Positions 7,997 to 53,517 of a stretch of DNA of 64,000 bases are shown here, one piece after another; within the stretch, counting starts at the first letter, position 1; every line of letters starts with the position of its first letter. Source of the DNA: Candidatus Aenigmatarchaeota archaeon (GTDB lineage Archaea; Aenigmatarchaeota; Aenigmatarchaeia; CG10238-14); the NCBI GenBank assembly GCA_026414305.1, contig JAOAJH010000003.1, forward strand, positions 64,994 through 128,993, written 5' to 3'. Below the pieces are notes generated by a model that saw nothing but the letters and a program-made list of their open reading frames with translations, had not been told where the DNA came from and searched no databases. Made by a program: the position numbers and the translations under genes.

Positions 7997-8071
7997 TGGG
8001 GCAGCCGAGATTTGAACTCGGGTCGCCAGCACCCCAAGCTGGAATACTAGACCAAGCTATACTACTGCCCC
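7997..8071 (-). tRNA. tRNA-Pro (anticodon GGG)
   Basis: Reverse complement: acceptor GGGGCAG/CUGCCCC, D-arm with two G-U pairs, anticodon stem CCAGC/GCUGG with loop UUGGGGU (anticodon GGG, G37), T-arm CCGAG-UUCAAAU-CUCGG, discriminator A. Confidence 0.85.
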
Positions 8072-8513: not shown

Positions 8514-8597
8514 CGCTGGAGGCGTGATTTGAACACGCAAGGGCTTGCGCCCGCAGGCTTTCCAGGCCTGTGCCATACCAGATTAGGCGACTCCAGC
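8514..8597 (-). tRNA. tRNA-Ser (anticodon GGA), type II with long variable arm
   Basis: Reverse complement: acceptor GCUGGAG/CUCCAGC, anticodon stem CAGGC/GCCUG, loop CUGGAAA (anticodon GGA), ~15-nt variable arm with GGGC/GCCC stem, T-arm GCGUG-UUCAAAU-CACGC, discriminator G. Confidence 0.85.
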
Positions 8598-48600: not shown

Positions 48601-49437
48601 TCCTATGTTTTCTGAATGTCCATCTACTTTTATCCTTATCTTGCTTGTTTTATACTCAAAAGTTGTTGTGTTTACTAATCCAATGAAATTTACTTTTACT
48701 GTATATTGACCGTCAGAATAAACAGAAATATTATCTTCATAATATCCGTCAGAATAAACATAATTTTCATAAACAGCAGAATCATTATAAATTACTGTTA
48801 TTTGGACAGTGCCGTTAACTGATGTATAGCCGTAAATTCTGACTGTATCGTTTTGTTTATATATTGATTTATCAGTAAAAACAGTCAAGAAATTTTGTTG
48901 TGGTGCATCGGTGTAATTTGCTTTTATTTCGAGCGAAGACGGATTTAAAAACAAGGAATTGTTGCCTTTGTAGACTATCGAGATGTTTGAATTTTGCTGA
49001 ATATATATTTCACCAAGATCATTTGTGTATAGTTTTTCAAAAACGCCATTTGAATATACTTCCAACTCTTGATTTGGCACAAAAGAGCCGTTGTCCATTC
49101 TTAGTGTTGCCTTTTCATCATCAACTGAAATAAAAGTATCAGCCCATATTTCTATCGATGCTTCTTGCTCTATATTGTTGTCTGAAACAGATGAAAACAT
49201 ACCTGTTATTGGAGAGTTTAATGTAGAGTTTGTTGCTATTACAGCAGCAGATGTTATTAACAAAATTATGAACGATGTGAGCAATTGAGTTTGGCCTGAC
49301 TCTGATTTTTTACTCAAATGTAAAAAAACTGCATATATAAAAGCTATCAGTAAACTTGCATATAACGGCAAAATTATGAATAGAGGAAGCATGACAATTG
49401 GTAATGCTGCTGAAAGTGTTGCTTGGCTCTTACTCAT
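15691..49437 (-). CDS. Giant (11,248 aa) multi-modular cell-surface protein with C-terminal TM and cytoplasmic FtsK/HerA-like ATPase domain
   Basis: Uninterrupted 33,747-nt ORF. N-terminal hydrophobic segments, a very long N/T/S/Y-rich ectodomain dense in NxS/T sequons, ~21 reiterated ~350-aa modules, CARDB/Ig-like C-proximal domains, a Gly/Ala linker, a TM helix and a Walker A/B ATPase tail. Antisense ORFs in this span are all short. Confidence 0.9.
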   Translation of the reverse strand: MSKSQATLSAALPIVMLPLFIILPLYASLLIAFIYAVFLHLSKKSESGQTQLLTSFIILLITSAAVIATNSTLNSPITGMFSSVSDNNIEQEASIEIWADTFISVDDEKATLRMDNGSFVPNQELEVYSNGVFEKLYTNDLGEIYIQQNSNISIVYKGNNSLFLNPSSLEIKANYTDAPQQNFLTVFTDKSIYKQNDTVRIYGYTSVNGTVQITVIYNDSAVYENYVYSDGYYEDNISVYSDGQYTVKVNFIGLVNTTTFEYKTSKIRIKVDGHSENIGETKFKSILVNGSLIYGDSKTNGNVKLVLKDAKSDIVAQREVYTEGDFVFNLTLLPKNYGKYTAEIKAETEYGNTTEIIVFDVLKHKVVKPKIKQEKFNYDLGEKIRFEIEAIDEDGMLYPDVNVSAYSIDPEGNITELSVIADNENPGKFYIELDTERDFKPGIHKLKVRFSYVSPNPGEVIVEEEIEFAVGLINVNTDKSIYLKNDKAKITVGVLNNEGKRAYDATVIMNILSPSGQITTFNSYNGDFSTDEFDGSLTLLYDVNETGYYSIEVSAYGSNFSVDYQTFFESRDYVEFDIQRKMKTLIDIGHPNTAELKIKSYVNASNVTFIEKLPNSFLEITVYGARIERKENETWIIWSFNSLNYGDEKTLKYSFTTPDVDPAIYLAGPLTVYYNGSLVYEESKPWTFIVVDVVYYFFKFMPYYYRTSNVTDAVQHVVFNSFDQYRDPVVMCRNHENYSFNVLLTDEADDDAGISQQWEFQVYDGSWKPITSNGVAGFFLMTGDSNPVTGSGVGQTDTCTSDFGTTNGDKCEWGEHFRWNITINRTASLGLTKLRVLPKTRTQGPMFDTNEFYAYIIDCQNINLVRPIKIFGPTGEPTDVISRGHLARIVVPLANYNSSAKQANISIDIKDSSGNSVDWFVEEGKTQSISLSGTSSRPNWSERRVVYTIYVPDNIQATTYTAYVNISYNQTTVQHTKTFTVYTDEGGTSNDIVLFTSTPRKLGANCEDTGGQTTNCGTGHASVCADADGQPCFKNFRQIYVCNYGDYNLTVNVTDFTAGSNVYFITETDGPPAVPQPDYNATGEVRWYNVRINTSSCFMADIPYRPTDDTGEETFILQAEWIDPITREPQMVTNQHVSLISALTGTQSPTITTTLNKTSVYPNEQLALRAIAKLGGSEGFTSIDGAATQTVVHYVELYIPPGFQRPTNFRIVDNNGATVRATSPDPGYPIGSPEEGWIVKFSPYSVGGTVIRFAAAATASVGNLNHYVDFTTTVLPENNITPGGKVFYTNYVGWMRQNKDYLFKTDRNVVNVLSPFIKTVRYYNTTSSNEEEGFPTSNMCQPFSVKLQVFNKGNLPATNFNVTENKYNQTVTHWNDLQFSNFNPSANVYSSNNIIWGNNNINFIPTGKDNSRNYTYLITVPYQTNGTFVFKALTRNVTYLFYDKNYTSLISCGASLIVSEPVIKKGELTNPPIYSGDSFNISSSIYNDGPGSATNVIVLINYTANFNVRNSTNHQNNITYLGNISSKETKQAHTDYYYTVNTTGVIPGTYRFCIIANATENSTRAASCRDVQIQSPPAVIELENPIVISKETGSSSGSWGYNFTFNISVRVSNSDTNVNVCSYFSKTGSEPWLQVGNCQNYNAPGPTTGPWRNYTYEFDPGCNDIGSPVFVKFNATNDAGTTNSTQSLFTITKDKIIFENIIGNNTETRRGKTSTLLALRTRDLNGTLVNNLPLVFYVTLDGSIYDAGYTTSTNASAYANYYFQAICSPKYQVGLQKWRAVLSNNDCYQDNNTETSFGLAVNVTGDIILSFVRPDESSNFTQEQEIPFLGATSDDCNDPLTPTVRYFINKSSTSIECTDISQVGSNAFTCELPTTINTPMGWYNASMYAVRDQHYTNYTNNLGNPGLFYLYPIKKLLQPYAYPTTEGWGYRNWNFSINVSSGDSENVLNASIYMAQFWPPITLCPSNICLNQTPLECDNCIGSTKYWYRNFTAFDQGTWYYQFKLDGTQTEQVLSVTVEKDDTNITYGGEGNLTTLIKDVQPQYLSARVYDLDRQTYNVTSPSATVTFKIFNSGYPEGYIILGTALTNETGYARFLFNITSCYGFYEGTQLWTAEINSSEQYYKPSQMGNGTITIQLPGCQPQIDAEEVLTPKEVFAGRNFTVNATITAWVASAENVFVTLRAPSGWQVDQSTKSLGTVNVGQHYRVSWQVNSTSYGEQNFTVYVNSTNANNETIYSNKLVSYKPATPSVTETLPTIIQPLQSKTFSWPCESGDYRIANLTASWNGTETKTKLYSYNGTTWIEIAERYLNSTSTEFIPILQNQLNSNETGYCVVKIENIGDNYININQLQFTPYYNQTVKVQDINITSSSMQLTGIEPNEKINVTVRVGNSGQSQTGVLWLNITGPSGVVNYSSQNVNIPTGTSLFFVNNIDTTGWQQGTYSIRAYVDYGNKTKRIEPFELSQIQARVYAYDWICNSSTESFSINIYHPFNDFIQYNVSLQIPTGWSSQPSYVLINATSKGNYTANFSITSSNAASETATINATIKYNYPTAKSMTLSKQIQQSNSIAILEVTREMPKYVGNDKVFDAQLTIHNKGCAPTSGTTVVREDISSGWIPANPFIKTNEYGDNIDLVSTQVDLIRNRITWTLGEIGVNEYAVLTYQIKAPVDLSREGQFRWNISWDSRNLIERDNFKVQTANYSQEAHLEFDLEALQQSDYPWVEPRSAQLNRNYDYSLKVTNIGDINATGWNVTLFIPQDCSVTAIQNSGSWNSTSRKISWSLPEIESYDSTYLNFTLNCSVEGKKVLIAEAVKDERQKITFTNDTLISCVGNDCLTEQTYTFTKPVNARYETLSSISLLTRQELFGYRNTIGHAKISLTNDLNVYSTLWQNYSHDSFTLANWQNYTILDSNYVLPSRQIKIEGYADATDDAYTNITLSKISYTWNVGKKFEEPQEIFIKSKIYKYTPLLENATLYINGNSTRLTGGWGEQFNFSVQIRDRFGRNVTVYAWHKKGAGEYSLIGSWVCYSCLNWNQANFSYDYVGSDISSWDFKFNATNDDGTSTLNGYPYTVEADDINVDFAYPGYNMTVNRSRTSDFVILVYDRDNQTSPYYLTQGEVDEGKGRIYISKFGSNATFDLSPSLSANTTGHITRQMSNVSNQWCFVTDYYLGQNYWRGGIEGAVTYKNNATGIYPFVLVGDLSNSYLTQPSNINFTRGSIVNLDGVIKDDCNDVKTDSAKFGAEYILSHESTQYRVTADLTSTSWSIPTNAPLGWYNITMISFTEGTEEGKYWNSSFFKQNAFFLSSTPQLNNVQIQPYPTGSWELKPFNFSVYVTNVDNESVLTRLWLRNQTDNWFVQNTTTCNNCNNYYFLTQNNFSCYNIGEWQLQFNATSATSFTNLTSTFIFNVTKSDISILHSQGNNTDVNRSDTEPSNQRRLAVQIFNLVTRKYETAISTSDVYTWINTGSQYIEEFELSNTSHYYFDFNPNCTFQSGMQKWKVNTTSSCYSTNTSQEFFVNIYGSLINNLILPDGTVNYTQNDQILLLGEITDDCSQAVTNANVRFKLQSGSNVYYCPVSGYITNSTGNYYLCTWDSTGKPGGFYNVTMESSKDYHINGSDYQQNAFFLVTPVQLSSPQVIYPGDGSWGELHNFTVYATHYAPVNVCLLERTPATQWQVTECKYISNPQNTMVNFTKDYTCDQYQASALRYYAFNASEPGVPATNSNTTEQSHVLVKNDIVISYSSGHDSIVNRNGINSTKFVLFVNDTDKNQPAYYLLGASAKPQVWFRVFNGTSYLVDGSNTTNTTGYVEYNFNPSCSYEPGKFNWQGYTSSDSCYKDSTAQEYNVTIIADLTPNVTYPDGETYFRNLLLYIPINGTVTDECNLRYNENATVTFTAISVGFGNSYQCSPVSNNNDGSYNCTLNATEIQEGWYNIRMNATNVQYYNNATVLATNKFRVVQQWVPPVLENVTVLPEQDWGWGENFTFIVNVSDQNAQDINVSLWLSPDNQTWQFISSQICYNCGSKQQLTFYYKGLDCSAIPQYYFKFNASDVYNKTDTGGISFTVNKNDVDARYIDLSTGNNSAVNRSEYKQLRLRVYDTDNKSYVPAGLNARIFVTTNYVDFDLGNANQTDSQGYISYYFSPNCSYQPGLQQWKGGIYNDACYKDSNITSQLNITIFGWLNNTISSPNGQVYYSNQNVSIKTNITDECLIPITNANITLKLNHSNFVDYCIDYSFGNGWYNCTWNISNNPSGWYSITMNSSKNYYNNASLFKSQSFFHQVNPQLTSLFVSPNSTWWGSTFSFRVNVTDDDDYVNVSLWVRCIGGNITPNGCDPSSQFQLANSSIVYDYINQQLVLTKKYPDGVNIGNYEWFINASDLYNGSASSSIYTFNVTKRPVYITYVSGNDTSVSRLGSNTTQVRVRLFRVGVDGGADEPLNGLSVNFWFTQNGNVWSTTPRSNTTGQSGPGYAEFSFNPTCPATDGGIDFFRTGMQWWNATFSSSTEPGIYYYANTSSNFTLFINSSLNVLITRPSGEYYPVGYNVFTVANVSDECEYVQGASVQISVAGEGISCSNNTGSPDGQYSCTLITSVLGTGDYNQTADASKAFYTSASTFKENAFRIRYSPQLNNHQVYPTTEGWGYNFTFNVSAQDSDPGDYLNISLWKSYGGEWIKVSQQNCESCLSQQTFFFYPIFSCEDYVNGPIVRFKFNTSDSYGLKAETSNFTINFEKDDVIFTIVQGNGAIINRSNLNTGNVYNFIVIVNDTDRRNVTVNSSEEPTSQITGYLWFSTEPMNPTFDAGWSNTTVNGSLSYLFNPNCNYRVGLQYWRAGIIGNTCYKDSNMTAPYPSMNIYGQLNTLLYRPPQYTQFNVTDNVTFKYSTYSDCYLQGAEDNGNISVDSSQLTINNTFSCTPINQESTGNYNCTWDTTNKAQGNYTVNITVQKSYYNYNSTLYVDWFYLRNRQPNVTNMSVTPQVSGWGDTYTYTAEIFDEENDTVTCSLYTNTTGTWIYKGSNTITAPGNCSIVVNDFNCNEQGLASFRFEINDTFTRFNTSVSNGPTIVKDNVQLVYILGNNSFVNRTADQTTLFVINATDITKNVKASNANATIWITTDGSFYGSSFNIQTNSTGYLNFYFNPNCSSPSYTLGRQFWLAGITNDACYNSINTTTNFTVNILGDLQLFINAPKGEKYLRTSYPDGEYVYIRANISDDCQLPITNAAVNFTSNRFSQNIYCNPIINELNSNYNCTIDTSSYQAGAWNVTMNASLANYNNNYTIHVYQANQRGYWVETKPVIEPYLPLTPVPAGDGGWGEYWLFATNVTDEDMDVLTLRLWVNSTVDPEIWTFRASNNTVSGVNQTVYFNVTFTSTFANKAFKFKYNVTENTVDFIQNVNETGNGTFYLDKDDTFVQYIEGNNTVVNRSSPLSVSNFTMTVRLWDADKYDTTLGNRRIRFLMTNDNNENYTIVSPPALRTNGTGEQPSSAGWGYATNYSKPDCKFTVGPQKWKAEIYDETPYKSSNSSVSFFTIIAQPLQARVISPKNQTALKGIDNVVIKVNLTDDCGLVRNANVTIRAIDASGVVRGICNPNDPFNPTLDEGNGIYNCTLSASQIFSEDWPTGWYNVSVNASKQYYESSPVYIEHRSFRIGTAPELSNIVVLSQQGSNVGGWGELWSFSVDLIDPDNDNSTVYLWMNLDGNWVLFNQTYWRNGIDPSTITFYNTFNCTQASDLGLKLFKFNVSDDFGFKDEINSTFTLQEDDTEIFISSTTGYELNREGLDQILLSALVTDLDRYSTPVGQDVSTRIRVTYNSSDPNSWNDFNLQTNSSGYINYYLDPDCTYSVGIQQWRAQVYNDVCYKTTTEQDSFIIKGSIYNNLELPDYLSSYPTGSVIEIKYNTTSDCTYTRSDEAPLINVTPTIELSLNGASWETCSPVNSTYGVYNCSWNSSFKQPGFWDIKFTSSKQYFNTKQTVFPDWFEIYNANPTNTTIPTVTPTMGGWGDVYNYSVYLTDSDGDPITCVLYTSTDDGNTWRRQGQRTIGSSGLCSFVVSNFNCNATYTDVGSDNWFKFEITDGYHTPFNISSEEGPIIERNNITITLLSGNNTIVNRTGNEFTTLRVFVNDTTKAWPVGNGTSGNATVYFNVTINGVSYVIDGSNTTLRGNVTYRFNPSCSYNVGDQKWFAYKSGATGGDQCYNDASSSVYNLTIFGNLINNIAIPNGEKYNRDEQNVTIRANVTTDCPSNEGLINNATVNFTIIHIGTSNQYSCTPGSFTNEGNGYYNCSFDTTSKPTQWYNIRMNSSGFQYLTPNNTIKTQAFFVSTRPVLANPTTSPLTGGWGAPHTFSVYVRDDDNDVNNVSLWIRCVGGDCTPTNFWLAKTSLVSASSSPQQVQFVKTDFTALDIGNWEYFFNSTDGLNSANTTIGTFTIDKDTINITLIEGDNVVINRSTTQTVTLRVKVFDVDRNVAISPGEPGTGYFYVTTDPNNANSYVIDKTLSSIEGGSYLTNTFPTLSRCTYGIGPQKWKVEFGSYAYKTTNSSEFSINITTHEIALQIIGPNNQTFRRVIDPIPLIAYASDDCGGLTQATAFFKAYPEYSWTTCNSPTDNLNGTYNCTLYSPPTAGLTYYDLEFNASKQYYNASNTAYKQDSFVLVTNPEITAYAPTTSDSLSPYGWSETWNFTAIVRDVDQNVYNFEKLNISLWIDFGSGYQLINSTICSAIDNPNCASWKAITFLYNKFSCGDIGIKSYKWNVTDQWNYKNETSSTFTIDKSDVAIEFVDQPSSIYRANSTTGRFIYRVLDTDSNSYVINTSTNTAMWITVDGNNYDSGRFVQINSSGYANYDFDPDCNYGYGMQRWIAGVYQDSCYKNKNLSFAPQFEVTAQLRNNIQLPSYNSVYNVTDLIAIRFNTTTECLTEGIIANATPTISLRSPLNVWETCTPVYNEYNGWYNCTWNSTHKKEGYWSITLNSTKTPYFAFNSSMYTNWFWLENLNSTYDNVTLAPGIGGWSRLYNYTIDIDDPEREDINCSLFVSKDNQLTWEYKGSYLLQNGLGKCFVTVHDFSCDDIGKDIYYKWQIVNGEPANAYNTTVYAGPNITESSVQVQLHQGNNTFVNRSFQTKPLVVRVYDTENQTFVYNANTSFWITYDYYNYTLVNQTKTDLLGYVLHSFLPTCMYIPGTQKWIGGVSNDKCYVDINSTEYLVHVNGTLFNNIIQPSSQEFLRGSNITIKVNVSSDCSNEVMNESVTINFTNVKDSTQYLCTPILNENTGLYNCTFNTSTYAARWWNVTAFSVKTLYNFNYTTKSNAFWIETKPELNNPTVTASGDGGWGETYIFTVNFTDEDLDPNTLRLWVNKSSGWTNSNTTTISGINQTVTFIQVNLFSSSDYINSLNNLTKYYFRTQDEVIPTENDIDQTQELNISLQKDDVYINHTYGNSTVVNRTEGSLFFRVRMWDTDRTPWDDLPSGSRGRFWFTKDGSSFTNTIDKFANSSGEIAHLQALECSFQVGPQYWFAELYGNTPYKDTNSSIFNWTIVTVGLTANITNPDGISRLRGIDDIVLRVRVTDDCGGVPNATVVFYVPSESYECNNVYYEGNGYYNCTIPYSTTTTWNTGWHDVTVDVSKQYYNGTFVEKTNAFYLATKPEILLTPPPTATPEQDGGWGENWLFTAITQDLDGDYYNVSLWFNLTGSWQLADSTIVSGPQQVDFPDKTFACENIGQRQFMFKVTDVWGYSNNYTSPFNIDKDDTTIEYVSGAGTQVDREYNDYELIRVQIRDFDRDDYLVGPNINGSVWITTDGVNYILSAINTTDSSSYLSYYFDPNCTYNVGVQKWRAGIYDDVCYKDNNPDFGFTIEITGQLKNYILSPPYNTTFAVGNYVNTTFAVLDECSLPVNQSNGKIEFRSPSGIYESCLPVTSSQNIYNCTWNTTLHQGGYWDIRLNSSKTYYYSNSTLLSQWLYLVNTPPYVENLSVTPTSEGWGRTFTFSLDVDDLQKDNVTCTLLVSTNNGLTWMNKGNSTIYNGYGRCQVNVSTFDCGDIGNDNRYMFEVYDGTNTFNTTNNTNLVIEPNDVQLYYISGNQSYVNRSGSQSTNFVLQVYDLDSNLYPSNVNMSVYVTVDQSNFIENSTPKTSFNGTLNYSFNPSCTFNNLGLQYWKVGANNNICYKNINTTENYTVYIIGDIINKLTGPTGDSYLRGEENVTFALEEIDDCAAPVENANIILNLTSEYGNVYGCEPVTTIGGGIYYCEKNTTGMRARWYNVSVNSSQQYYNSNISLHIRPFFVKTKPIVQNLTITPAQDWGWGERYTFTANVTDEDLDDVVVSLYYKSVVFDDWNQINFTTVSSPLNSTVIMTYQGFTCADQDYQQQFEISALDTRSYLTNSTLIEPWNKTFNLTKDDVILTLESGNGDEVWRNGTDNRRLSVRVYDSDKNTYPGAGYNGMFWVTTNYLSFDIGKQTTTNISSHLNYLFTSEAPQPECDYLTGPQKWIAGVYDDACYKDKNSTNYTITIKSELRPQIDFPYGQGFIRSNPVPFVGRVYDDCGLVSGATSTWTSYIGINEYGCFNKTEANGWYNCTWVSTNRPYGYYDLLFSVTKNYYALNSSFRDDAYFLGTLPSLSNPRILNNHYRGGWGETYDFAVRVTDFDLNINNVSVWKSFDGINWTLVDSRNVSNAVNQDVVFSKKFNCSDMGFNYFYFTTVDQFGYSANTTVMNFTLEYDNVSLVVGLSNSTVRRIGNNLALLNFTIYDYDYGRYAPLASGKVNITLDYTNYSYVMNCTTDSTGQCYVYYNPDCSSLAGVQQWIGKTDDSCYEYVQTVPTQLTVIAQLNTSIQSPYNQQILNRNQYANLTTNVFDECLVAVNDSTVNWYNETFYNIANGYSTTWQIPTFYQLGPETIYVNTSRTYYDKNSNFTNVYIYGWSGVLIENPINASNYLAGFSVNVKCKVTDQNTTSPLQGYTVNFYKNGTFQDSQLTNSEGEAVWLWQTLAETPGWYNITCSISDNNILFYNASKKQDEVQILIKRPLIIQTIQKDAPFVYRNNSFEPNNVNITVKVRDSLVGDANNANITFYNSTALIDYCMTNSSGICTINFNPSDTVTPNVYTIYINATKSGLEDSETNTTTIEVRGKLYLNISSPQNNSFWAKTDNLVLSASVVDESNQPTSSNLRWFNETALVASGENTNWLLLDQTTGNHTLTANATRDYYDKGEQTLIITVSSLADVQWIYPQDGSIMPYPLPFNTVCRVVDSSTGVGIANYLVDFWYNYTPGYIYNGTLLTNASGHATNTFEPIQKGTITFRCNITNDYVKLYTPNIPEALASITVRDTRPPQIYNQSIHPIYGLEANLNYTNISAVVIDDIGVSNVFARIGTPNGTYVNLTLSHMGSNLYSLFYLPPIGGVYNVTIFAVDNPPENNINNTFVGYFYVNGKTDGIVTQPDEIQINGITWVNSESAAITINFTNTGPATAYGVNLTFTADPLNSLIFNETMHQCGIVYNQSSCIFGLLVTVPAATPPSVLKLITDAVWRNPDQSLGIDSEDTNFIIISNKIIDIIEENVTAITPHDKLTDIPDVNVSSIGNDLITDITVTTVGGNISTLCPECQIIIVPNEWGLLEAGANFIVDLKVQVPIAQPPGTYWTYVRASSPETAPDLMPLYITVPLNASWQRSPDSFGIILAPPNTTGYIGDITTTSFANIRIIFNAYKQQNASQLFNIYPSAFSLDNGAVRNVSVNYTIPASYVSAQGMYYAEIIITNTTAMPQEYKTSFWLNVTDIPPIISNVSIIPQTFEMIYENTNISAIITDNFAVSYAFINVTLPNGSSIQQPIQPTGKYYSAVYSTNIHGYHNISICANDTQSLIACTNPIPVLASGKTQINQSFNVSKVDVSNITLFEGKQYVLNVSTNNIGNSRAFNVSVNITSPQNLSTNINNSFYNLILKTQSYSDLVLVNISPATKPGKYMLNFSNSWINLDNTTDESLSQLEFEVLSNPKLNLSSNVTVYVPDGTENNGTLTIQSIGNDDVTNITFSCLSGTVCQDFNISFIPSFISRLNVSEAAYVNISVAVPRQYPLGTYNGTIQVNATNISMNVPIYVIVPMNLSWTQSPLEIYRNVLGDSYGYYGSIELQNTGNTPLLLKVEKTGNISSYLSLAESYITIPIGAVYTIKINYTVPNIAQISNFTGYITTGNTTADQQKSTFVSLHVTPYYVDIKYPTSTNPITGITFGDTISARVNVTFGQVLTDNVTFFVRIFNESFSQAVVVDSAYYSPSQQLWIVNFTAPMLPENRAYDLNITANDTFDNLIRSDVEYRSINYMDSIPPQLTLIVPSKVPAGYVATVNGIAYEEGNLRNVPAIITYPDNRTQQISFIFLYRVNNTYYYQYNITNTTLLGVYTINATACDYSNNCGNASSEFQIYPAALFHGYSKDYEHAAEPITFVNFTLYQPDTTQMLFNITPNMANGYYNVLIDARRYDLQASIFNSTILSRNVEIITDVFNPMIFGDIPSERVSIGTLQGLYIETVLNTTNTSITFDYSDYMSKTICKMNNDCRPAAFFEGSLALFRCDNWVRKTGCLGSWTRLTTTVNSTLHTATAQVTGNISGAYALAPYICGDNTCDHGYGESTFTCPADCPLPPPVTLPPQAAGGAAGGAGGGGGGAGGAGLGQITIPGVPFSIKSTLLFVTLKPGEEEIHSIEITNNEESEMKGEIKVEGFAWEMIMLEESSFTVAPKSTKVIKVKVFALPSNQPGIYTADLVTTIGDKQHRTPITIKVDYGPEPLLDVKVESLTKSVQPGHQAKFQVTVLNMGQTAKVEDIVLNYTLRNLKTEEVITRSQETVAVEDVLTFIKTFDIPEDTPTERYILEVTASYWYGKKVARAATAFDVVYLPAPLIILKALATSWITYAVLLLIAPATIIGYRAYRYYTTMKKIKAKYIFPVDVKKLPQPGPNTVLVGKVAETDINAYTDINKLVMHSLAAGGTGSGKTVSAMATAEELLKRDIPVIVFDPTAQWTGFIRPCKDEEMFKLYPQFGLKREDARGFKTNIIIVKDPHMKLNLKQYMKPGEITVFVMNKLSMADIDTLIRASIQEIFDMNLPESKQLKLLMVYDEVHRLLPKYGGKGGFVALERGAREFRKWGIGLFMISQVLMDFRGAIRANIGTEIQLRTKYEGDINRVKTKYGADYAARITKLTTGTGLVQNPEYNEGKPWFLSFRPLLHDTHRLTDEELAEYDATQQKINEADQRIEKLKARKIDTYDVELELNIAKDKMKQGMFKMAQTYLESVDSRLKALERR
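15694..16800 (-). other. Cytoplasmic FtsK/HerA-superfamily P-loop ATPase domain (C-terminal ~370 aa of the giant protein)
   Basis: Walker A AAGGTGSGKT (nt ~16612..16650). Walker B/DEAH-like LLMVYDEVHRLLP. Arginine-finger-like region further C-terminal. Located after the only C-terminal TM helix. Confidence 0.7.
16813..16912 (-). other. Transmembrane helix of the giant protein (PLIILKALATSWITYAVLLLIAPATIIGY) followed by basic YRAYRYY
   Basis: Hydrophobic 28-aa stretch followed by a positive-inside patch, immediately before the ATPase domain. Translated directly from 16801..16905. Confidence 0.7.
17569..17661 (-). other. Gly/Ala-rich flexible linker (PPVTLPPQAAGGAAGGAGGGGGGAGGAGLG) in the giant protein
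   Basis: Conspicuous GC-rich run (gctcctccggctccgccaccgcctccacctgcaccacctgccgcacc) in otherwise AT-rich DNA. Verified by translating the reverse complement. Confidence 0.8.
22300..45000 (-). repeat. Intragenic array of ~21 diverged tandem protein modules (~350 aa / ~1 kb each) within the giant gene
   Basis: About 20 copies each of three recurring sub-domains. Sub-domain 1: (G)GWGE-x-F-x-V-x-V-x-D-x-D...N-V-S-L-W. Sub-domain 2: V-N-R-S...R-V-Y-D-T-D...F-N-P-x-C-x-Y-x-x-G-x-Q-x-W-x-A-G...C-Y-K-D-x-N. Sub-domain 3: D-E-C...N-A-N-V...Y-x-C-x-P...G-x-Y-N-C-T-W...G-W-Y-N-x-T. Two anchor points mapped by translation: TEGWGYRNW at ~43640..43670 and PECDYLTGPQKW at ~24050..24140. Array boundaries are approximate. 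Confidence 0.6.
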
Positions 49438-50287
49438 ATGTCACCACAATTTTTATTTTTTTGATGCCTAGCTCAGAGGATTTTGTGTCTATCAAAATCT
49501 CTGGATAACAACTTTGGCCAAATTCTAAATCGCAACTGCCTGTTTTTTCGTTTAAAATATTCAAATCAGCCGGAATTATCCATTCATAGGAAATCTTTCT
49601 TAATCCGTTCAAATTACTTGTCAATACAGCCTTGATTGAAAATGTATTACCTCTTGTGGCCTTTTGGTTATAGTCAAACTCTATTTTTACTTTACCACTT
49701 GACACATCAGTTAAATCATTTGAAACATTATAGGATTCAGAAATTTGATTGTCTGAATAATTGCTATCTGGAATTTGGGTTGTAGAAACTGTCGAAAATT
49801 CATCACCTATTGTTGAAGTTGTAGCAGAAATTTGATTGTCTGAAACTGTCGATGTTTCTTGATCCTCGAAAGATGTCGTAGTTGACATGATATCGCTAGA
49901 TGATGTTACTGTCAAAGTGTCGAAAACTTCAGGAAAATTGCCTGTTACAGGATTGCTTGAATTGTCGATGTTTTGTGCTATTATAAGAACAGGTATTGCC
50001 ATCAGTATTAGTGCCAAGAGAAAGATTTGCACCTGTCCTGTTTCAGCTTTTTCGCTAGCTACTGCATGAACTGGTTTGTATTTTGGCAAGAAACAAAGCT
50101 TTGCCATACCGACTTTTCTTTCTTCCACCTTGCCTGATAGGATTAGATCCTTTACGTATTTTGTTGCTGTGTGTCTATGAATGCCTGCTTTGTCTGCTAA
50201 AGAAGATATTGTTAATCCCTCTGGATGCTTTGACAAAACGTCCAAAATGTTTTTCATCAAATTTTGTTCCATATGGAATTTCCCCAT
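49430..50287 (-). CDS. Membrane-tethered winged-helix transcription regulator (N-terminal wHTH, one TM, S/T-rich extracytoplasmic spacer and C-terminal beta-rich domain)
   Basis: N-terminal LDVLSKHPEGLTISSLADKAGIHRHTATKYVKDLILSGKVEERKVGMAKLCFL is a wHTH paralogous to 52933..53235. TM segment VQIFLLALILMAIPVLIIA. Spacer with SDNQIS repeats. Its stop TAA (49430..49432) overlaps the giant gene start ATG (49435..49437). Confidence 0.6.
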   Translation of the reverse strand: MGKFHMEQNLMKNILDVLSKHPEGLTISSLADKAGIHRHTATKYVKDLILSGKVEERKVGMAKLCFLPKYKPVHAVASEKAETGQVQIFLLALILMAIPVLIIAQNIDNSSNPVTGNFPEVFDTLTVTSSSDIMSTTTSFEDQETSTVSDNQISATTSTIGDEFSTVSTTQIPDSNYSDNQISESYNVSNDLTDVSSGKVKIEFDYNQKATRGNTFSIKAVLTSNLNGLRKISYEWIIPADLNILNEKTGSCDLEFGQSCYPEILIDTKSSELGIKKIKIVVTYE

Positions 50288-50532
50288 CTAGTATTGGCCA
50301 ATATTGTTATACAATATTGTCGATTGATATAAGTGCTGCGAATCAATCTAGCAAAAGTGTCGAATCGACAGTATTTTCAAAAAACGACAAAAACATATCT
50401 ATATTTTATATGATTATTTTTCATTTTCAAGCAATTTCTTTCAAAATTGTCGATTTGCAACTTTTATGAAAAGTCGAACATACAAGTGTCGAATAGAAAA
50501 CAATTTTATATCGACAATACAAATAATAAGAT
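50288..50532. promoter_or_regulatory. Divergent promoter region with repeated TGTCGA/TCGACA motifs and a 17-bp palindrome
   Basis: Palindrome ATATTGTTATACAATAT (50301..50317). Motif copies: TGTCGATTGA (50318..50327); perfect 13-bp palindrome TGTCGAATCGACA (50358..50370); TGTCGATTTG (50448..50457); GTCGAA (50473..50478); TGTCGAATA (50487..50495); TCGACAAT (50511..50518). TATA-like AATTTTATAT (~50503). Confidence 0.5.
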
Positions 50533-50937
50533 ATGATAAAGTTTCTAGGTCAGGAAAAGGCTAAACAAACAGAAGATGATCTAAACAAGCAGTTAAACAT
50601 ACAACATGCTCAACTATTCAAGGTAATAGAGGATATGAGAGAGTTAAACCAGAAAATAGAAAGGATATTTGTTGAGTTGGAACAAATAAAACAAAAGTTG
50701 GATAAAACTCCAATTTCGGACAACGGTTTTGAAAATCAAGCTCAACTTAAAAAGGATAAGACAAAAGAAGCAATAAAAATAATTTTGAGAAAAAAAGGCA
50801 GAATGACATCAGAAGATCTATCAAAACTCATTGGATTGTCAAGGTCAAGGTGCAATGAATATTTGAAAGAAATGGAAAGAAACAAAGAGGCTAAATCAGA
50901 AATAGAGAATAGAAAGAAATATTACAGGCTTGTTTAA
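50533..50937 (+). CDS. Coiled-coil protein with C-terminal winged-helix DNA-binding domain (putative regulator)
   Basis: 134 aa. N-terminal coiled coil; C-terminal RMTSEDLSKLIGLSRSRCNEYLKEMERN is wHTH-like. Confidence 0.45.
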   Translation: MIKFLGQEKAKQTEDDLNKQLNIQHAQLFKVIEDMRELNQKIERIFVELEQIKQKLDKTPISDNGFENQAQLKKDKTKEAIKIILRKKGRMTSEDLSKLIGLSRSRCNEYLKEMERNKEAKSEIENRKKYYRLV

Positions 50938-51644
50938 ACACTCATTTCCTTCATTATCTCTTTTGAATAATCCTTCCACAGCTTGAAAACTTTTGCTTCA
51001 TCAAACAAGTCTAAAGGCATCTCTTTTGTCGAAAGGTCTTTTATAACAGATTTGTAATATGAAAAGAAGTTTGTGCCGAAATAAGGTGAAAAGATCAATG
51101 ATTGAGATAGCAACAAAATACTGTCTAAATCAACTTTTAGTTTTTTCTTCAAAGTAACTATTATAAAGTAATTAAAAATTGTTATCAGTGGTGCTGTTAT
51201 GCAAAGCTCATAATTGTTTTTCAAATTCTGTTTGTCGCCAAATAATATCTTAAGCCTTTGAAGCATGAAAAATACTTCTCTGTTTGTGTCAATATAATAT
51301 AAAAGCTTCTTCTTGTTCTTTATACAACTTAATATGTGAAACGGCAAATCGTTTTCAAATGACACTCTGCTTTTTTTAGCATGCTCATCCAAAAAATCAA
51401 ATATCCATTCTGTTTTGCCATATATTAGATCGCCAGAAACGCCTCTTACTTTGACTTTGCCTTTACTTTCAATAAAACCCTTTTCCAACATTTCTTTCCA
51501 AATTGATTTGTTCAGACCTTTTTGATATAAAGCATTGCCGTCATAACCCCAAAAATCTTGTATTTCATTTATCGTCCTCGGTCTATCTAAACAGCTTGAC
51601 CATATTATCCAAAACTTGTCAAAAGCCCAAATTTGCCTCTCCAT
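50934..51644 (-). CDS. Hypothetical protein, possible N-terminal wHTH
   Basis: 236 aa. LDRPRTINEIQDFWGYDGNALYQKGLNKSIWKEMLEKGFI resembles a wHTH. ATGA overlap with the upstream plus-strand gene end. GGGGGGT immediately upstream of the ATG. Confidence 0.4.
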   Translation of the reverse strand: MERQIWAFDKFWIIWSSCLDRPRTINEIQDFWGYDGNALYQKGLNKSIWKEMLEKGFIESKGKVKVRGVSGDLIYGKTEWIFDFLDEHAKKSRVSFENDLPFHILSCIKNKKKLLYYIDTNREVFFMLQRLKILFGDKQNLKNNYELCITAPLITIFNYFIIVTLKKKLKVDLDSILLLSQSLIFSPYFGTNFFSYYKSVIKDLSTKEMPLDLFDEAKVFKLWKDYSKEIMKEMSV

Positions 51645-51989: not shown

Positions 51990-52886
51990 TTACTCTGCTA
52001 CTATTGTCAAAATACTTGTGGAAGTATTACCTGTTGGAACGCCTCTTGGCACTAGCACTGTTAAATTGAGTGTGTGGATCATTCCTGACATGAAATCTTC
52101 TGTTGTTATGTATTTTCTAGCTGAACAAGCTGGTAGTGTTTGATTATAATCCCATTGTGCTACCATTATTCTTGAGCAATCTCTGTATATGTATACACAA
52201 TAATCTTGCAAAGGTCCTGATGAAAACGTCCATGAACTCCATTCAGTTGTGTTTGCTTCAAATGTTGCTGCGATTGTGCCGACAGTCATGTCTCTGTTTG
52301 GCGATGATAAAGATTCTGCTGATGACTTTATTCTAAACTCCATTTGGCTGCCGTTCAAGCATTCACCAACAGTTGCGCTGTCATTGAAATTCCACAAATA
52401 TATGTCAGTGAAATTCCTGAAATATCCCCATGATACAGCGTCTGCTGGATTCAAAGTCATGTATGTTGGTTGCTCTGTTTCATTCCATTCGATTCTATTG
52501 ACAAATCTATAGCCTGCTTCACCTGTCTCGTTTTTCAGCACTAAAAACGATCCTGCAGCATATAATGTAGGATTACCTTTTCCTATCGGATTTGTTGTTT
52601 CTATTGCAAATGAATTAACAGTTGACCATAACTTTGTGAAATTGACTGAACCTGTGTTTTGAATATCAACACTGTAAAGTGTTGCTGTGTATGTTGGCAC
52701 AATGTCCAACCATTCTATAGCAGCTGGTGTCACTATGATTTCTGATAGCAAAGAAACGTTCAAAGATATTATAACAGTATCATTTGTTGCTGCTTTTACA
52801 GAAGGTATGTTTGTGGTCAAAATGAAAGACAAGATAATTGATAAAATCCCTATGATTAAAAAAAATGTATTTCTACCTACTTTCAT
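51990..52886 (-). CDS. Secreted/surface protein with N-terminal signal-anchor (hypothetical)
   Basis: 298 aa. N-terminal hydrophobic segment then AxA-like VKAATN. N-x-S/T rich, beta-rich extracellular composition. Confidence 0.5.
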   Translation of the reverse strand: MKVGRNTFFLIIGILSIILSFILTTNIPSVKAATNDTVIISLNVSLLSEIIVTPAAIEWLDIVPTYTATLYSVDIQNTGSVNFTKLWSTVNSFAIETTNPIGKGNPTLYAAGSFLVLKNETGEAGYRFVNRIEWNETEQPTYMTLNPADAVSWGYFRNFTDIYLWNFNDSATVGECLNGSQMEFRIKSSAESLSSPNRDMTVGTIAATFEANTTEWSSWTFSSGPLQDYCVYIYRDCSRIMVAQWDYNQTLPACSARKYITTEDFMSGMIHTLNLTVLVPRGVPTGNTSTSILTIVAE

Positions 52887-52932
52887 CAGATACCACTAAG
52901 ATTAATATTGTTATCCCTATTTATAAAATTTA

Positions 52933-53235
52933 TTGTTATACAATAATTTTAAATATAATTGTTTATCAATATTTATTATAGATTTTATGTCTGATCCAAA
53001 ACACCATATAATAGAAGTGTTGAAGAAGCATCCTGAAGGTCTGACATTACAAAAAATAGCGCAATTAACAAACATGAGCAGACTGACTGCTACAAAATAT
53101 GTCCACGAGTTAATCGGCGGCGGTATAGTTTACCAAAGAAAAGTTGGTGTTGCAAAATTATGCTATCTTAAAGACAGATACATAAAACTGGTTAAAGAAG
53201 AGGAAATACTGGAACAGTTGAAAAAGATATCATAA
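52933..53235 (+). CDS. Stand-alone winged-helix transcription regulator (paralog of the N-terminal domain of 49430..50287)
   Basis: IEVLKKHPEGLTLQKIAQLTNMSRLTATKYVHELIGGGIVYQRKVGVAKLCYL aligns closely with the membrane-tethered regulator. Confidence 0.6.
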   Translation: MLYNNFKYNCLSIFIIDFMSDPKHHIIEVLKKHPEGLTLQKIAQLTNMSRLTATKYVHELIGGGIVYQRKVGVAKLCYLKDRYIKLVKEEEILEQLKKIS

Positions 53236-53517
53236 ATAGCTTATAAAACCATTTTTTTCCAATTCACTTAAAATGTTTATTAAAGTTGGCTTTACATCTT
53301 CCTGGTTTGCCTCTATTCCCTTTGCTATTTCTTCAGCTATCTGATCTATATTTCTGCTGCCGTCACACAAACTTAAAATAAAGTTTATTCCAGGGTCTAT
53401 TTCCCAAACTCTGGATCCATCAAAAGTTGCATATAAAGACCCTATGTTTGATATTATTTTCAGTTTGCTTGATTTTATCGGTCTTTTTTGAAACTCTTCC
53501 ATATTATTATTAATCAC
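53230..53517 (-). CDS. PqqD-family protein (RiPP recognition element-like peptide chaperone)
   Basis: 95 aa. SRVWEIDPGINFILSLCDGSRNIDQIAEEIAKGIEANQEDVKPTLINILSELEKNGFI matches the PqqD pattern (..iW.lldG.rtv.eI...l...y.v....v..Dv..fl..L...gli). Confidence 0.55.
   Translation of the reverse strand: MINNNMEEFQKRPIKSSKLKIISNIGSLYATFDGSRVWEIDPGINFILSLCDGSRNIDQIAEEIAKGIEANQEDVKPTLINILSELEKNGFISYL

Follow-up and report, generated by a model that had tools for sequence, protein, structure and literature searches.

A conserved hexamer array in the divergent control region of a giant-gene locus in a Candidatus Aenigmatarchaeota archaeon

How might a gene of 34 kb be controlled in the cell of a DPANN archaeon? 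In these archaea, attachment to the host is believed to depend on giant surface proteins, and we know of nothing on the control of a gene of this size in their tiny, uncultivated cells. The question is raised by a 64,000 nt stretch of contig JAOAJH010000003.1 (here called the window) from a Candidatus Aenigmatarchaeota archaeon, in which an open reading frame (ORF) for an 11,248 aa protein follows the gene for a membrane-anchored winged helix-turn-helix (wHTH) protein, here called the regulator. The 245 nt between the regulator gene and a divergently oriented gene for a small wHTH protein (50288–50532) include six exact copies of the hexamer TGTCGA or its complement TCGACA, and two degenerate copies. 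An earlier note on this DNA had suggested that such sites are operators for the wHTH proteins encoded on both sides, controlling both transcripts. Conservation, adjacency to predicted TATA boxes and the wHTH neighbours support that idea, and we consider it probable that the hexamers are the half-sites of a conserved operator array, bound by a wHTH protein encoded at the locus, most likely the small one, which would repress both promoters.

The hexamer cluster and its two promoters

All of the sites listed in the earlier note were found again, and both neighbouring genes do encode wHTH proteins. Its claim that the hexamer recurs far above chance, for which it had proposed a comparison with the background, holds when the count is made over the 64 kb window. 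There, 25 copies were observed against 10.7 expected, and the excess is due entirely to 11 copies within 49790–51032. The rate outside this cluster predicts 0.055 copies per 245 nt, compared with the six observed (Poisson P = 3.6e-11). When the intergenic region was shuffled 20,000 times with its dinucleotide composition preserved, no more than three copies ever appeared, and in 3,000 shuffles no CG-containing hexamer attained six. The cluster is more striking because CpG is depleted in the surrounding DNA, with an observed/expected ratio (O/E) of 0.46 across the window; seven of the nine CpGs in the intergenic region fall within TCGA cores. Two details required correction. A site described as a perfect 13 bp palindrome is indeed a dyad, but its structure is 6+1+6, and the cluster is not limited to the intergenic region, as four further copies lie within the regulator ORF.

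As the DNA is from a DPANN archaeon (Aenigmatarchaeota), the region was read as two divergent archaeal TATA promoters, not bacterial ones, and the boxes and transcription starts given here are predictions. The regulator was taken to start at its second ATG, at 50272, in agreement with the NCBI protein start and with the orthologue alignment. Its product is 100% identical to a hypothetical protein from a metagenome-assembled Candidatus Aenigmarchaeota genome that is annotated from the second ATG, and in the orthologue alignment the position of the first ATG is occupied by a Shine-Dalgarno sequence, AAGGAGG (GGGGA in the window), which confirms this start. The putative TATA box of the regulator–giant-gene promoter (50332–50327, reading in the regulator direction) is followed 3 nt on by TCGACA, and the predicted regulator leader of approximately 30 nt would start inside an AT-rich 7+3+7 inverted repeat and carry the Shine-Dalgarno-like GGGGA. 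At the small wHTH gene, TCGACA (50511–50516) abuts the downstream side of the predicted TATA box and TGTCGA lies 12 nt upstream of the box. Many first genes of the window have a TATA-like hexamer starting 27–35 nt before the ATG and no Shine-Dalgarno sequence, which supports the promoter assignment here, and operon-internal genes carry GGTGA or AGGAG instead. The small wHTH gene fits this apparently leaderless class.

The TATA-proximal site of the regulator and the sequence at 50510–50519 make up a perfect 10 bp inverted repeat (TATTGTCGAT/ATCGACAATA) with its arms 185 nt apart. An invertible promoter was considered and rejected, as inversion would merely swap similar promoters and there is no recombinase gene nearby.

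Conservation in related loci and extension into coding sequence

Seven orthologous intergenic regions, from loci whose regulators share 40–87% identity, were aligned. Every invariant block in the alignment holds a TCGAC core, while the spacers have diverged. Beside the small gene, the conserved block is TGTCGA-N18-TCGACA around the TATA-like box, and it is accompanied by a TTCGAC copy, AATCGACA and CTGTCGATTCGAC. At the regulator, the block is CTTATAyC-N2-3-TCGACA, and after it come the AT-rich inverted repeat, TGGCCAAT and the Shine-Dalgarno sequence. Spacings are rigid within each promoter module. The dyad and the TATA-proximal site of the regulator are 47 bp apart, start to start, in every orthologue of the window's clade, and the distances within the other module are 24 and 39 bp.

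A scan of species-representative genomes returned 27 further loci, nearly all from Aenigmatarchaeota and with GC contents of 30–51%. In 23 non-redundant loci, hexamer density was approximately 0.6 per kb in the flanks but rose to 11–15 per kb over the 200 nt that precede the regulator, and an unbiased scan of all 6-mers in the 300 nt upstream found TCGACA/TGTCGA 75 times, against 3.5 expected, with the hexamer present in every locus (23/23). In an independent metagenome set, 46/48 regulator-type loci had the hexamer within 200 nt upstream, and the density profile was reproduced in 43 independent metagenome loci. The hexamers have been kept in about 100 related archaeal loci while the spacers between them diverged. 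The same site logic is seen in clades of higher GC content, where the intergenic region has been shortened to approximately 140 nt: a TGTCGA-N0/1-TCGACA dyad lies between the TATA box and the start of the small gene, ATATATACT-TCGACA is found at the regulator promoter, and there is a TTGTACA-N4-TGTACAA palindrome near the regulator start. In all clades, a TATA-like box is followed by TCGACA within 0–3 nt at both promoters. The motif is thus enriched and positionally conserved in orthologous control regions, and at both promoters it is adjacent to the predicted TATA box. Sites in these places occupy the classical positions of archaeal repressor operators.

Gene order is also shared, with relatives encoding a secreted protein of approximately 296 aa, proteins of approximately 64 and 236 aa and the small wHTH protein, then the regulator and, downstream of it, a giant ORF. 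In two of the orthologous loci (L007:3148–4000 and L008:436–753), a HicB-like antitoxin gene has been inserted into the intergenic region. There, the 30 nt TGTCGA-N18-TCGACA block is duplicated, with one copy facing the small wHTH gene and the other facing the inserted gene.

The four copies within the regulator ORF lie in the DNA for a disordered linker. Written in two reading frames (TCG-ACA and xTC-GAC-Axx), they rely on TCG and GAC, both of them rare codons; TCG accounts for only 4.2% of the Ser codons in the giant gene. The dipeptide Ser-Thr is written TCGACA in 16/31 cases in the regulators of this clade, compared with 4/97 in the giant gene. Synonymous-codon shuffles that keep each protein sequence and its codon usage were used to obtain expected numbers. 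In 19 regulator ORFs, 49 copies were found against 11.5 expected (maximum 24), and the four in the window's regulator compare with 0.75 expected (P = 0.005). These copies correspond to a second peak of hexamer density, at +300 to +599, that is present both in the 23 loci and in the 43 independent loci, and in orthologues they are often 16 bp palindromes, TGTCGA-N4-TCGACA. The small wHTH ORFs of many lineages, though not that of the window, are also enriched (153 copies against 28.6 expected, at fixed codons). In many lineages (loci L013–L120), the Leu-Ser-Arg of the recognition helix is encoded by TTG TCG AGA, which makes the hexamer, where the window has TTG TCA AGG. This constraint at synonymous codon positions points firmly to selection on the hexamers in ORFs at the DNA level.

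The linker DNA at 49738–49852 includes a perfect 20 nt direct repeat (49738–49757 and 49825–49844) and a 31 nt repeat at 57 nt spacing. These repeats indicate that the low-complexity linker grew by internal duplication, with the hexamers carried along.

Two further observations concern the distribution of CpG-containing motifs in the window. A lone TGTCGA is found at 51027–51032, 90 nt past the stop codon of the small wHTH gene and within the 3' end of a convergent gene for a 236 aa protein, and orthologues have single hexamers at roughly similar places that cannot be aligned with it. The tetramer CGCG is strongly avoided window-wide, with two copies observed and 15.7 expected from trinucleotide frequencies, and a restriction-modification system may be the cause. 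Restriction-modification avoidance of TCGA was also considered and is not seen (O/E 0.95).

Candidate binding proteins and rival explanations

The AlphaFold model of the regulator has a confident wHTH domain (residues 1–65), a transmembrane helix (79–102), a disordered Ser/Thr-rich linker (103–192) and a beta-sandwich (195–280). In structure comparisons, the C-terminal domain matches complement MG domains and the N-terminal domain matches generic winged helices, and the ectodomain has Asn-x-Ser/Thr sequons and a conserved Cys pair. The wHTH domain has only sub-threshold wHTH matches in Pfam, alongside its confident winged-helix model. We infer from the model that the regulator has a cytoplasmic wHTH domain, a single transmembrane helix and an extracellular MG/Ig-like domain. 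Its ORF overlaps the start of the giant gene by 8 nt. The giant protein has scattered matches to the beta-sandwich domains MG2, NPCBM_assoc and DUF11, and the MG/NPCBM_assoc-like C-terminal domain of the regulator is of the same fold class, a hint that the two proteins may be linked physically or through sensing.

The small wHTH protein is modelled by AlphaFold with a 45-residue N-terminal helix (14–58), a flexible linker of low confidence and a wHTH domain (65–133), and its recognition helix, LSR(T/S)RCNEYL, is invariant across clades. Against curated family models, both wHTH proteins stay below threshold, the sub-threshold matches including the Lrp, Sta1, Lrs14 and SurR models, and among solved structures neither has a significant relative, only generic winged-helix similarity. 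The coordinates of these and other features are listed in Table 1.

Table 1. Features of the control region, the flanking genes and the related downstream region (window coordinates)
Feature	Position	Strand	Basis or remark
TGTCGA	50318, 50358, 50448, 50487	+	exact string positions
TCGACA	50365, 50511	+	exact string positions
TCGACA as read in regulator direction; TATA-proximal putative half-site	50318..50323	-	invariant in all aligned orthologues
Dyad TGTCGA-A-TCGACA (6+1+6), TGTCGAATCGACA	50358..50370		TGTCGATTCGAC invariant among orthologues
Degenerate copy ACGACA (5/6)	50384..50389	+	full TGTCGA at aligned position in L005 and L008
TGTCGA, block AATCGACA in regulator direction	50448..50453	+	conserved block of orthologue alignment
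GTCGAA, 5/6 copy (TTCGAC block)	50473..50478	+	TCGA invariant; full TCGACA in L002
Inverted pair TGTCGA-N18-TCGACA	50487..50516	+	30 nt block almost invariant among aligned orthologues
Predicted TATA box of regulator–giant-gene promoter, TTATAT	50327..50332	-	CTTATAyC conserved in orthologue alignment
Predicted TATA box of small wHTH gene, TTTATA	50505–50510	+	23–28 nt before ATG
Four in-ORF TCGACA copies	49790–49795, 49847–49852, 49918–49923, 49963–49968	-	DNA for disordered linker of regulator
AT-rich second element ATATTGT-TAT-ACAATAT (7+3+7), ATATTGTTATACAATAT	50302..50318		over predicted regulator transcription start
Palindrome ATTGGCCAAT	50293–50302		follows 7+3+7 repeat in regulator direction
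Second ATTGTTATACAAT copy (52932–52944) and related ATTGTTTATCAAT (52958–52970)	52932..52970	+	divergent region between 298 aa gene and 82 aa wHTH paralogue
Giant gene, 11,248 aa	15691..49437	-	preceded by GGTGA; likely cargo of control region
Membrane-anchored wHTH regulator, 280 aa	49430..50272	-	Pfam and AlphaFold model
Small wHTH protein, 134 aa	50533..50937	+	Pfam HTH_24 and TrmB
Stand-alone paralogue of regulator wHTH domain, 82 aa	52987..53235	+	sequence comparison

Judged from sequence, the hexamers are almost certainly control sites that bind protein, and they form a genuine cis-regulatory array that is strongly conserved and familiar in kind, namely operators in a divergent, autoregulated control region. 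In the mechanism we propose, the small wHTH protein would dimerise via its long helix, and its linker would allow the winged helices to reach differently spaced half-sites. One putative half-site lies just downstream of each predicted TATA box, with a partner across the TATA box of the small gene, and occupied half-sites would block TBP, TFB or RNA polymerase at both promoters. The small regulator would then be autorepressed, and the operon for the membrane-anchored wHTH protein and the 11,248 aa surface protein would be repressed, repression rather than activation being our interpretation of the array. The upstream dyad (50358–50370), the other intergenic copies and the four copies 300–480 nt into the regulator ORF would act as auxiliary sites that stabilise a higher-order or looped repression complex, or would serve as roadblocks. 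The AT-rich 7+3+7 repeat would be a separate operator, probably for a paralogous wHTH protein.

As the binder of TGTCGA, the small wHTH protein is slightly favoured, with the membrane-anchored protein as its main rival, because the arrays track the small gene, the most universal of the sites lies in its promoter and its linker is flexible. Hexamer arrays were found in 59/60 loci with an adjacent small wHTH gene. Of seven loci scored as lacking one, four carry the hexamer, including L007, where the gene has been displaced by the insertion described above; in loci that truly lack the gene, the hexamer is found in 3/6. Of all the sites, the one found most universally is a dyad in the core promoter of the small gene itself, between TATA box and start codon. 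The flexible linker between the long helix and the winged helix would let the small protein tolerate variable spacings.

Several observations weigh against this interpretation. The loci compared are phylogenetically related, so that the counts are not independent events. Enrichment within the regulator ORF is confined to clades of lower GC content and absent from the high-GC clades, and two of the window's four in-ORF copies sit in the 57 nt internal duplication. A single rigid dimer would not usually bind half-sites whose spacings vary as they do here (N0, N1, N4 and N18). In all clades, each of the two wHTH proteins keeps an invariant recognition helix, and covariation with motif variants therefore gives no assignment of the motif to either protein. 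Finally, at L089, which encodes a stand-alone paralogue of the membrane regulator, TCGACA lies beside a TATA-like box with no small wHTH gene within 1.4 kb upstream, so the membrane protein's own domain could be the TGTCGA binder.

The membrane-anchored wHTH protein might accordingly bind TGTCGA itself, autoregulate through an array that covers its promoter and 5' coding sequence, and hold the giant-gene locus at the membrane, where export of the 11,248 aa product has to occur, while its MG-like domain senses the state of the surface or host, though we think this rather unlikely. Its predicted N-in topology, with one transmembrane helix and an extracellular beta-sandwich, would suit this role, as would the overlap of its reading frame with the start of the giant gene, the retention of TCGACA in the L089 promoter and the presence of paralogues of its wHTH domain directly upstream of other giant ORFs. 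The boxes of ArnR, a membrane-bound regulator, use the same pentamer, as TCGAC-N5-GTCGA (PMC6396743). However, the arrays follow the small wHTH gene, and membrane tethering is conjecture. The stand-alone paralogue loci L121, L123 and L126 have no hexamer, and L123 retains the TGTACA palindrome, which suggests that this wHTH type reads the TGTACA-type element. Less likely again is that the hexamers, instead of being ordinary operators, form a docking array of up to approximately 1.3 kb that is embedded in part in the codons of the two regulator genes. The membrane wHTH protein, possibly joined by the coiled-coil one, would there tether the giant-gene locus to the cell membrane.

Explanations that dispense with a simple repressor fare worse. 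Each site contains a TCGA palindrome, and a divergent control region between two regulators ahead of a surface protein resembles papI-papB, so competition between a TCGA methyltransferase and a wHTH protein might set a heritable ON/OFF state of the surface-protein operon, in the manner of the Pap phase switch. Such an epigenetic switch is very improbable here, as a scan of window ORFs turned up no methyltransferase gene, TCGA occurs across the window about as often as expected and the conserved unit is the full hexamer rather than TCGA alone. It is even harder to see the region as a replication origin or a partition (centromere-like) site, with initiator or ParB-like boxes flanking an AT-rich unwinding stretch. 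Several short inverted repeats do surround a variable AT-rich centre (50390–50445), but that centre is the least conserved part of the region, and at 6 bp the boxes fall far short of the length of archaeal origin recognition boxes. The sites keep fixed positions relative to TATA boxes and start codons, the skew does not turn at this locus, and a scan of the neighbours found no orc1/cdc6 or other initiator gene and no parA or segA-like gene. This candidate was rejected. Action at the RNA level, through leader or mRNA hairpins or a spacer-encoded small RNA, is comparably implausible. While the in-ORF TGTCGA-N4-TCGACA of some orthologues could fold as hairpins with 6 bp stems, N0/N1 dyads cannot, the four in-ORF copies of the window all have the same orientation and no partner, and sites occur in both orientations and upstream of TATA boxes. 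An Rfam covariance scan of 49300–51100 found no family, only two chance-level matches (E about 0.5) that both lie outside the intergenic region, and neither pairing-preserving compensatory changes nor a stable spacer transcript was seen. Chance or a compositional artefact, for which nothing speaks beyond the low complexity of AT-rich DNA, is refuted by the shuffles and the conservation, and can for practical purposes be dismissed.

The AT-rich element at the regulator promoter appears to be of a different kind. It had been described in the earlier note as a 17 bp AT palindrome 14 nt upstream of the regulator start. It is not a perfect 17-mer but a 7+3+7 inverted repeat (50302–50318), and it lies 29 nt upstream, given that the start is the second ATG. 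The repeat is invariant across the window's clade, and other clades have TTGTACA-N4-TGTACAA in the same place. Its exact core, ATTGTTATACAAT, has only two occurrences in the 64 kb, at 50303–50315 and in the divergent control region upstream of 51990–52886. The earlier note had proposed looking for the hexamer in that second region; TGTCGA is absent from it, and what is found there is the AT-rich repeat. As the core is shared with the promoter of the 82 aa paralogue of the regulator's wHTH domain and that promoter has no TGTCGA, the repeat is plausibly a separate operator class, with the paralogue as its candidate binder. The recognition helix is SRLTATKY in the paralogue and HRHTATKY in the regulator.

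Many stand-alone proteins, 63–115 aa long, are members of the large family to which the wHTH domain of the regulator belongs. Genes for stand-alone paralogues of 84–95 aa immediately precede other giant ORFs, one of 5,212 aa and others of 3,545–4,295 aa (L123:1501–3288 and L126:1501–3255), and the regulator-type wHTH family may be generally linked to giant genes.

The 82 aa paralogue is part of a conserved companion cluster (51990–53517) that also encodes a 298 aa protein, which is hydrophobic near its N-terminus and has many Asn-x-Ser/Thr sequons, a protein of approximately 66 aa, a 236 aa protein with no family match and a PqqD-like peptide chaperone (53230–53517). Elsewhere in the window, genes for tRNA-Pro(GGG) (7997–8071) and tRNA-Ser(GGA) (8514–8597) were found on the - strand, overlapping listed ORFs.

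Relation to known systems and significance

The closest described system is ArnR/ArnR1 of Sulfolobus acidocaldarius, membrane-bound one-component HTH activators of the archaellum and pili, whose boxes are TCGAC-N5-GTCGA inverted repeats, two of which are needed for binding (PMC6396743). The pentamer and the membrane anchoring match, while architecture, box geometry and position differ. Both are archaeal factors with an N-terminal HTH domain, anchored in the membrane and controlling a cell-surface structure, though for the regulator studied here this is predicted from sequence and model. In ArnR, cytoplasmic HAMP and sensor domains precede two transmembrane helices at the C-terminus, whereas the regulator is modelled with a single transmembrane helix in a central position, then a disordered linker and an extracellular beta-sandwich, and a Pfam search found no HAMP match in it. 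The boxes of ArnR are everted repeats with an N5 spacer that act as activator sites at -43 to -84, upstream of the BRE (B recognition element) and TATA box. Here, inverted half-sites spaced at N0, N1, N4 or N18 adjoin the predicted TATA boxes and continue into ORFs. No ArnR model was among the NCBIfam matches of the wHTH proteins.

The bacterial regulators ToxR, CadC and TcpP have the same topology as the modelled regulator, in which a single transmembrane helix joins a winged helix at the cytoplasmic N-terminus to a C-terminal domain outside the cytoplasm, and, as at this locus, they use several sites per target promoter and are often encoded beside their target. However, their winged helix is of the OmpR type (Pfam Trans_reg_C, for which the regulator has no match in a Pfam search), and they act at sigma-70 promoters through direct repeats and usually activate.

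Several autoregulated archaeal wHTH repressors, among them LrpA, Lrs14, MDR1 and TrmB/TrmBL1, bind palindromic sites at or just downstream of the BRE/TATA of their own promoter. Such repressors exclude TBP/TFB or RNA polymerase, and several cooperative operators are common. The array resembles these systems in having palindromic sites at or after the putative TATA box in a regulator's own promoter. It differs in that its wHTH proteins have no significant membership of these families, the hexamer is a different one and the array extends over up to approximately 1.3 kb, including both regulator ORFs. Auxiliary operators within coding sequence are familiar from bacteria, as in lac O2 at +401 in lacZ and in the gal system (OI). 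The in-ORF hexamers are likewise a few hundred bp downstream of the promoter in the first ORF, which would be compatible with looping, but here two to six copies are embedded per ORF and have been kept with rare codons across many lineages. What sets this array apart, on present comparisons, is its rare-codon extension into coding DNA, its pairing with a membrane-anchored wHTH protein and its apparent dedication to a giant surface-protein operon.

If the docking arrangement considered above were true, transcription, translation and export of the 11,248 aa protein would be spatially coupled and gated by sensing through the extracellular MG-like domain, and this family of wHTH proteins would consist of regulators dedicated to giant genes in DPANN archaea generally. 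The locus provides a conserved and precisely delimited cis-element together with three candidate wHTH proteins, one of them predicted to be membrane-anchored and to carry an extracellular domain whose fold class is shared by domains of the giant protein. The rare-codon hexamers within ORFs are a clear example of overlapping protein and DNA codes, and in many lineages the codons involved include those of the recognition helix. The wHTH family also flags other giant-gene operons and could aid their annotation.

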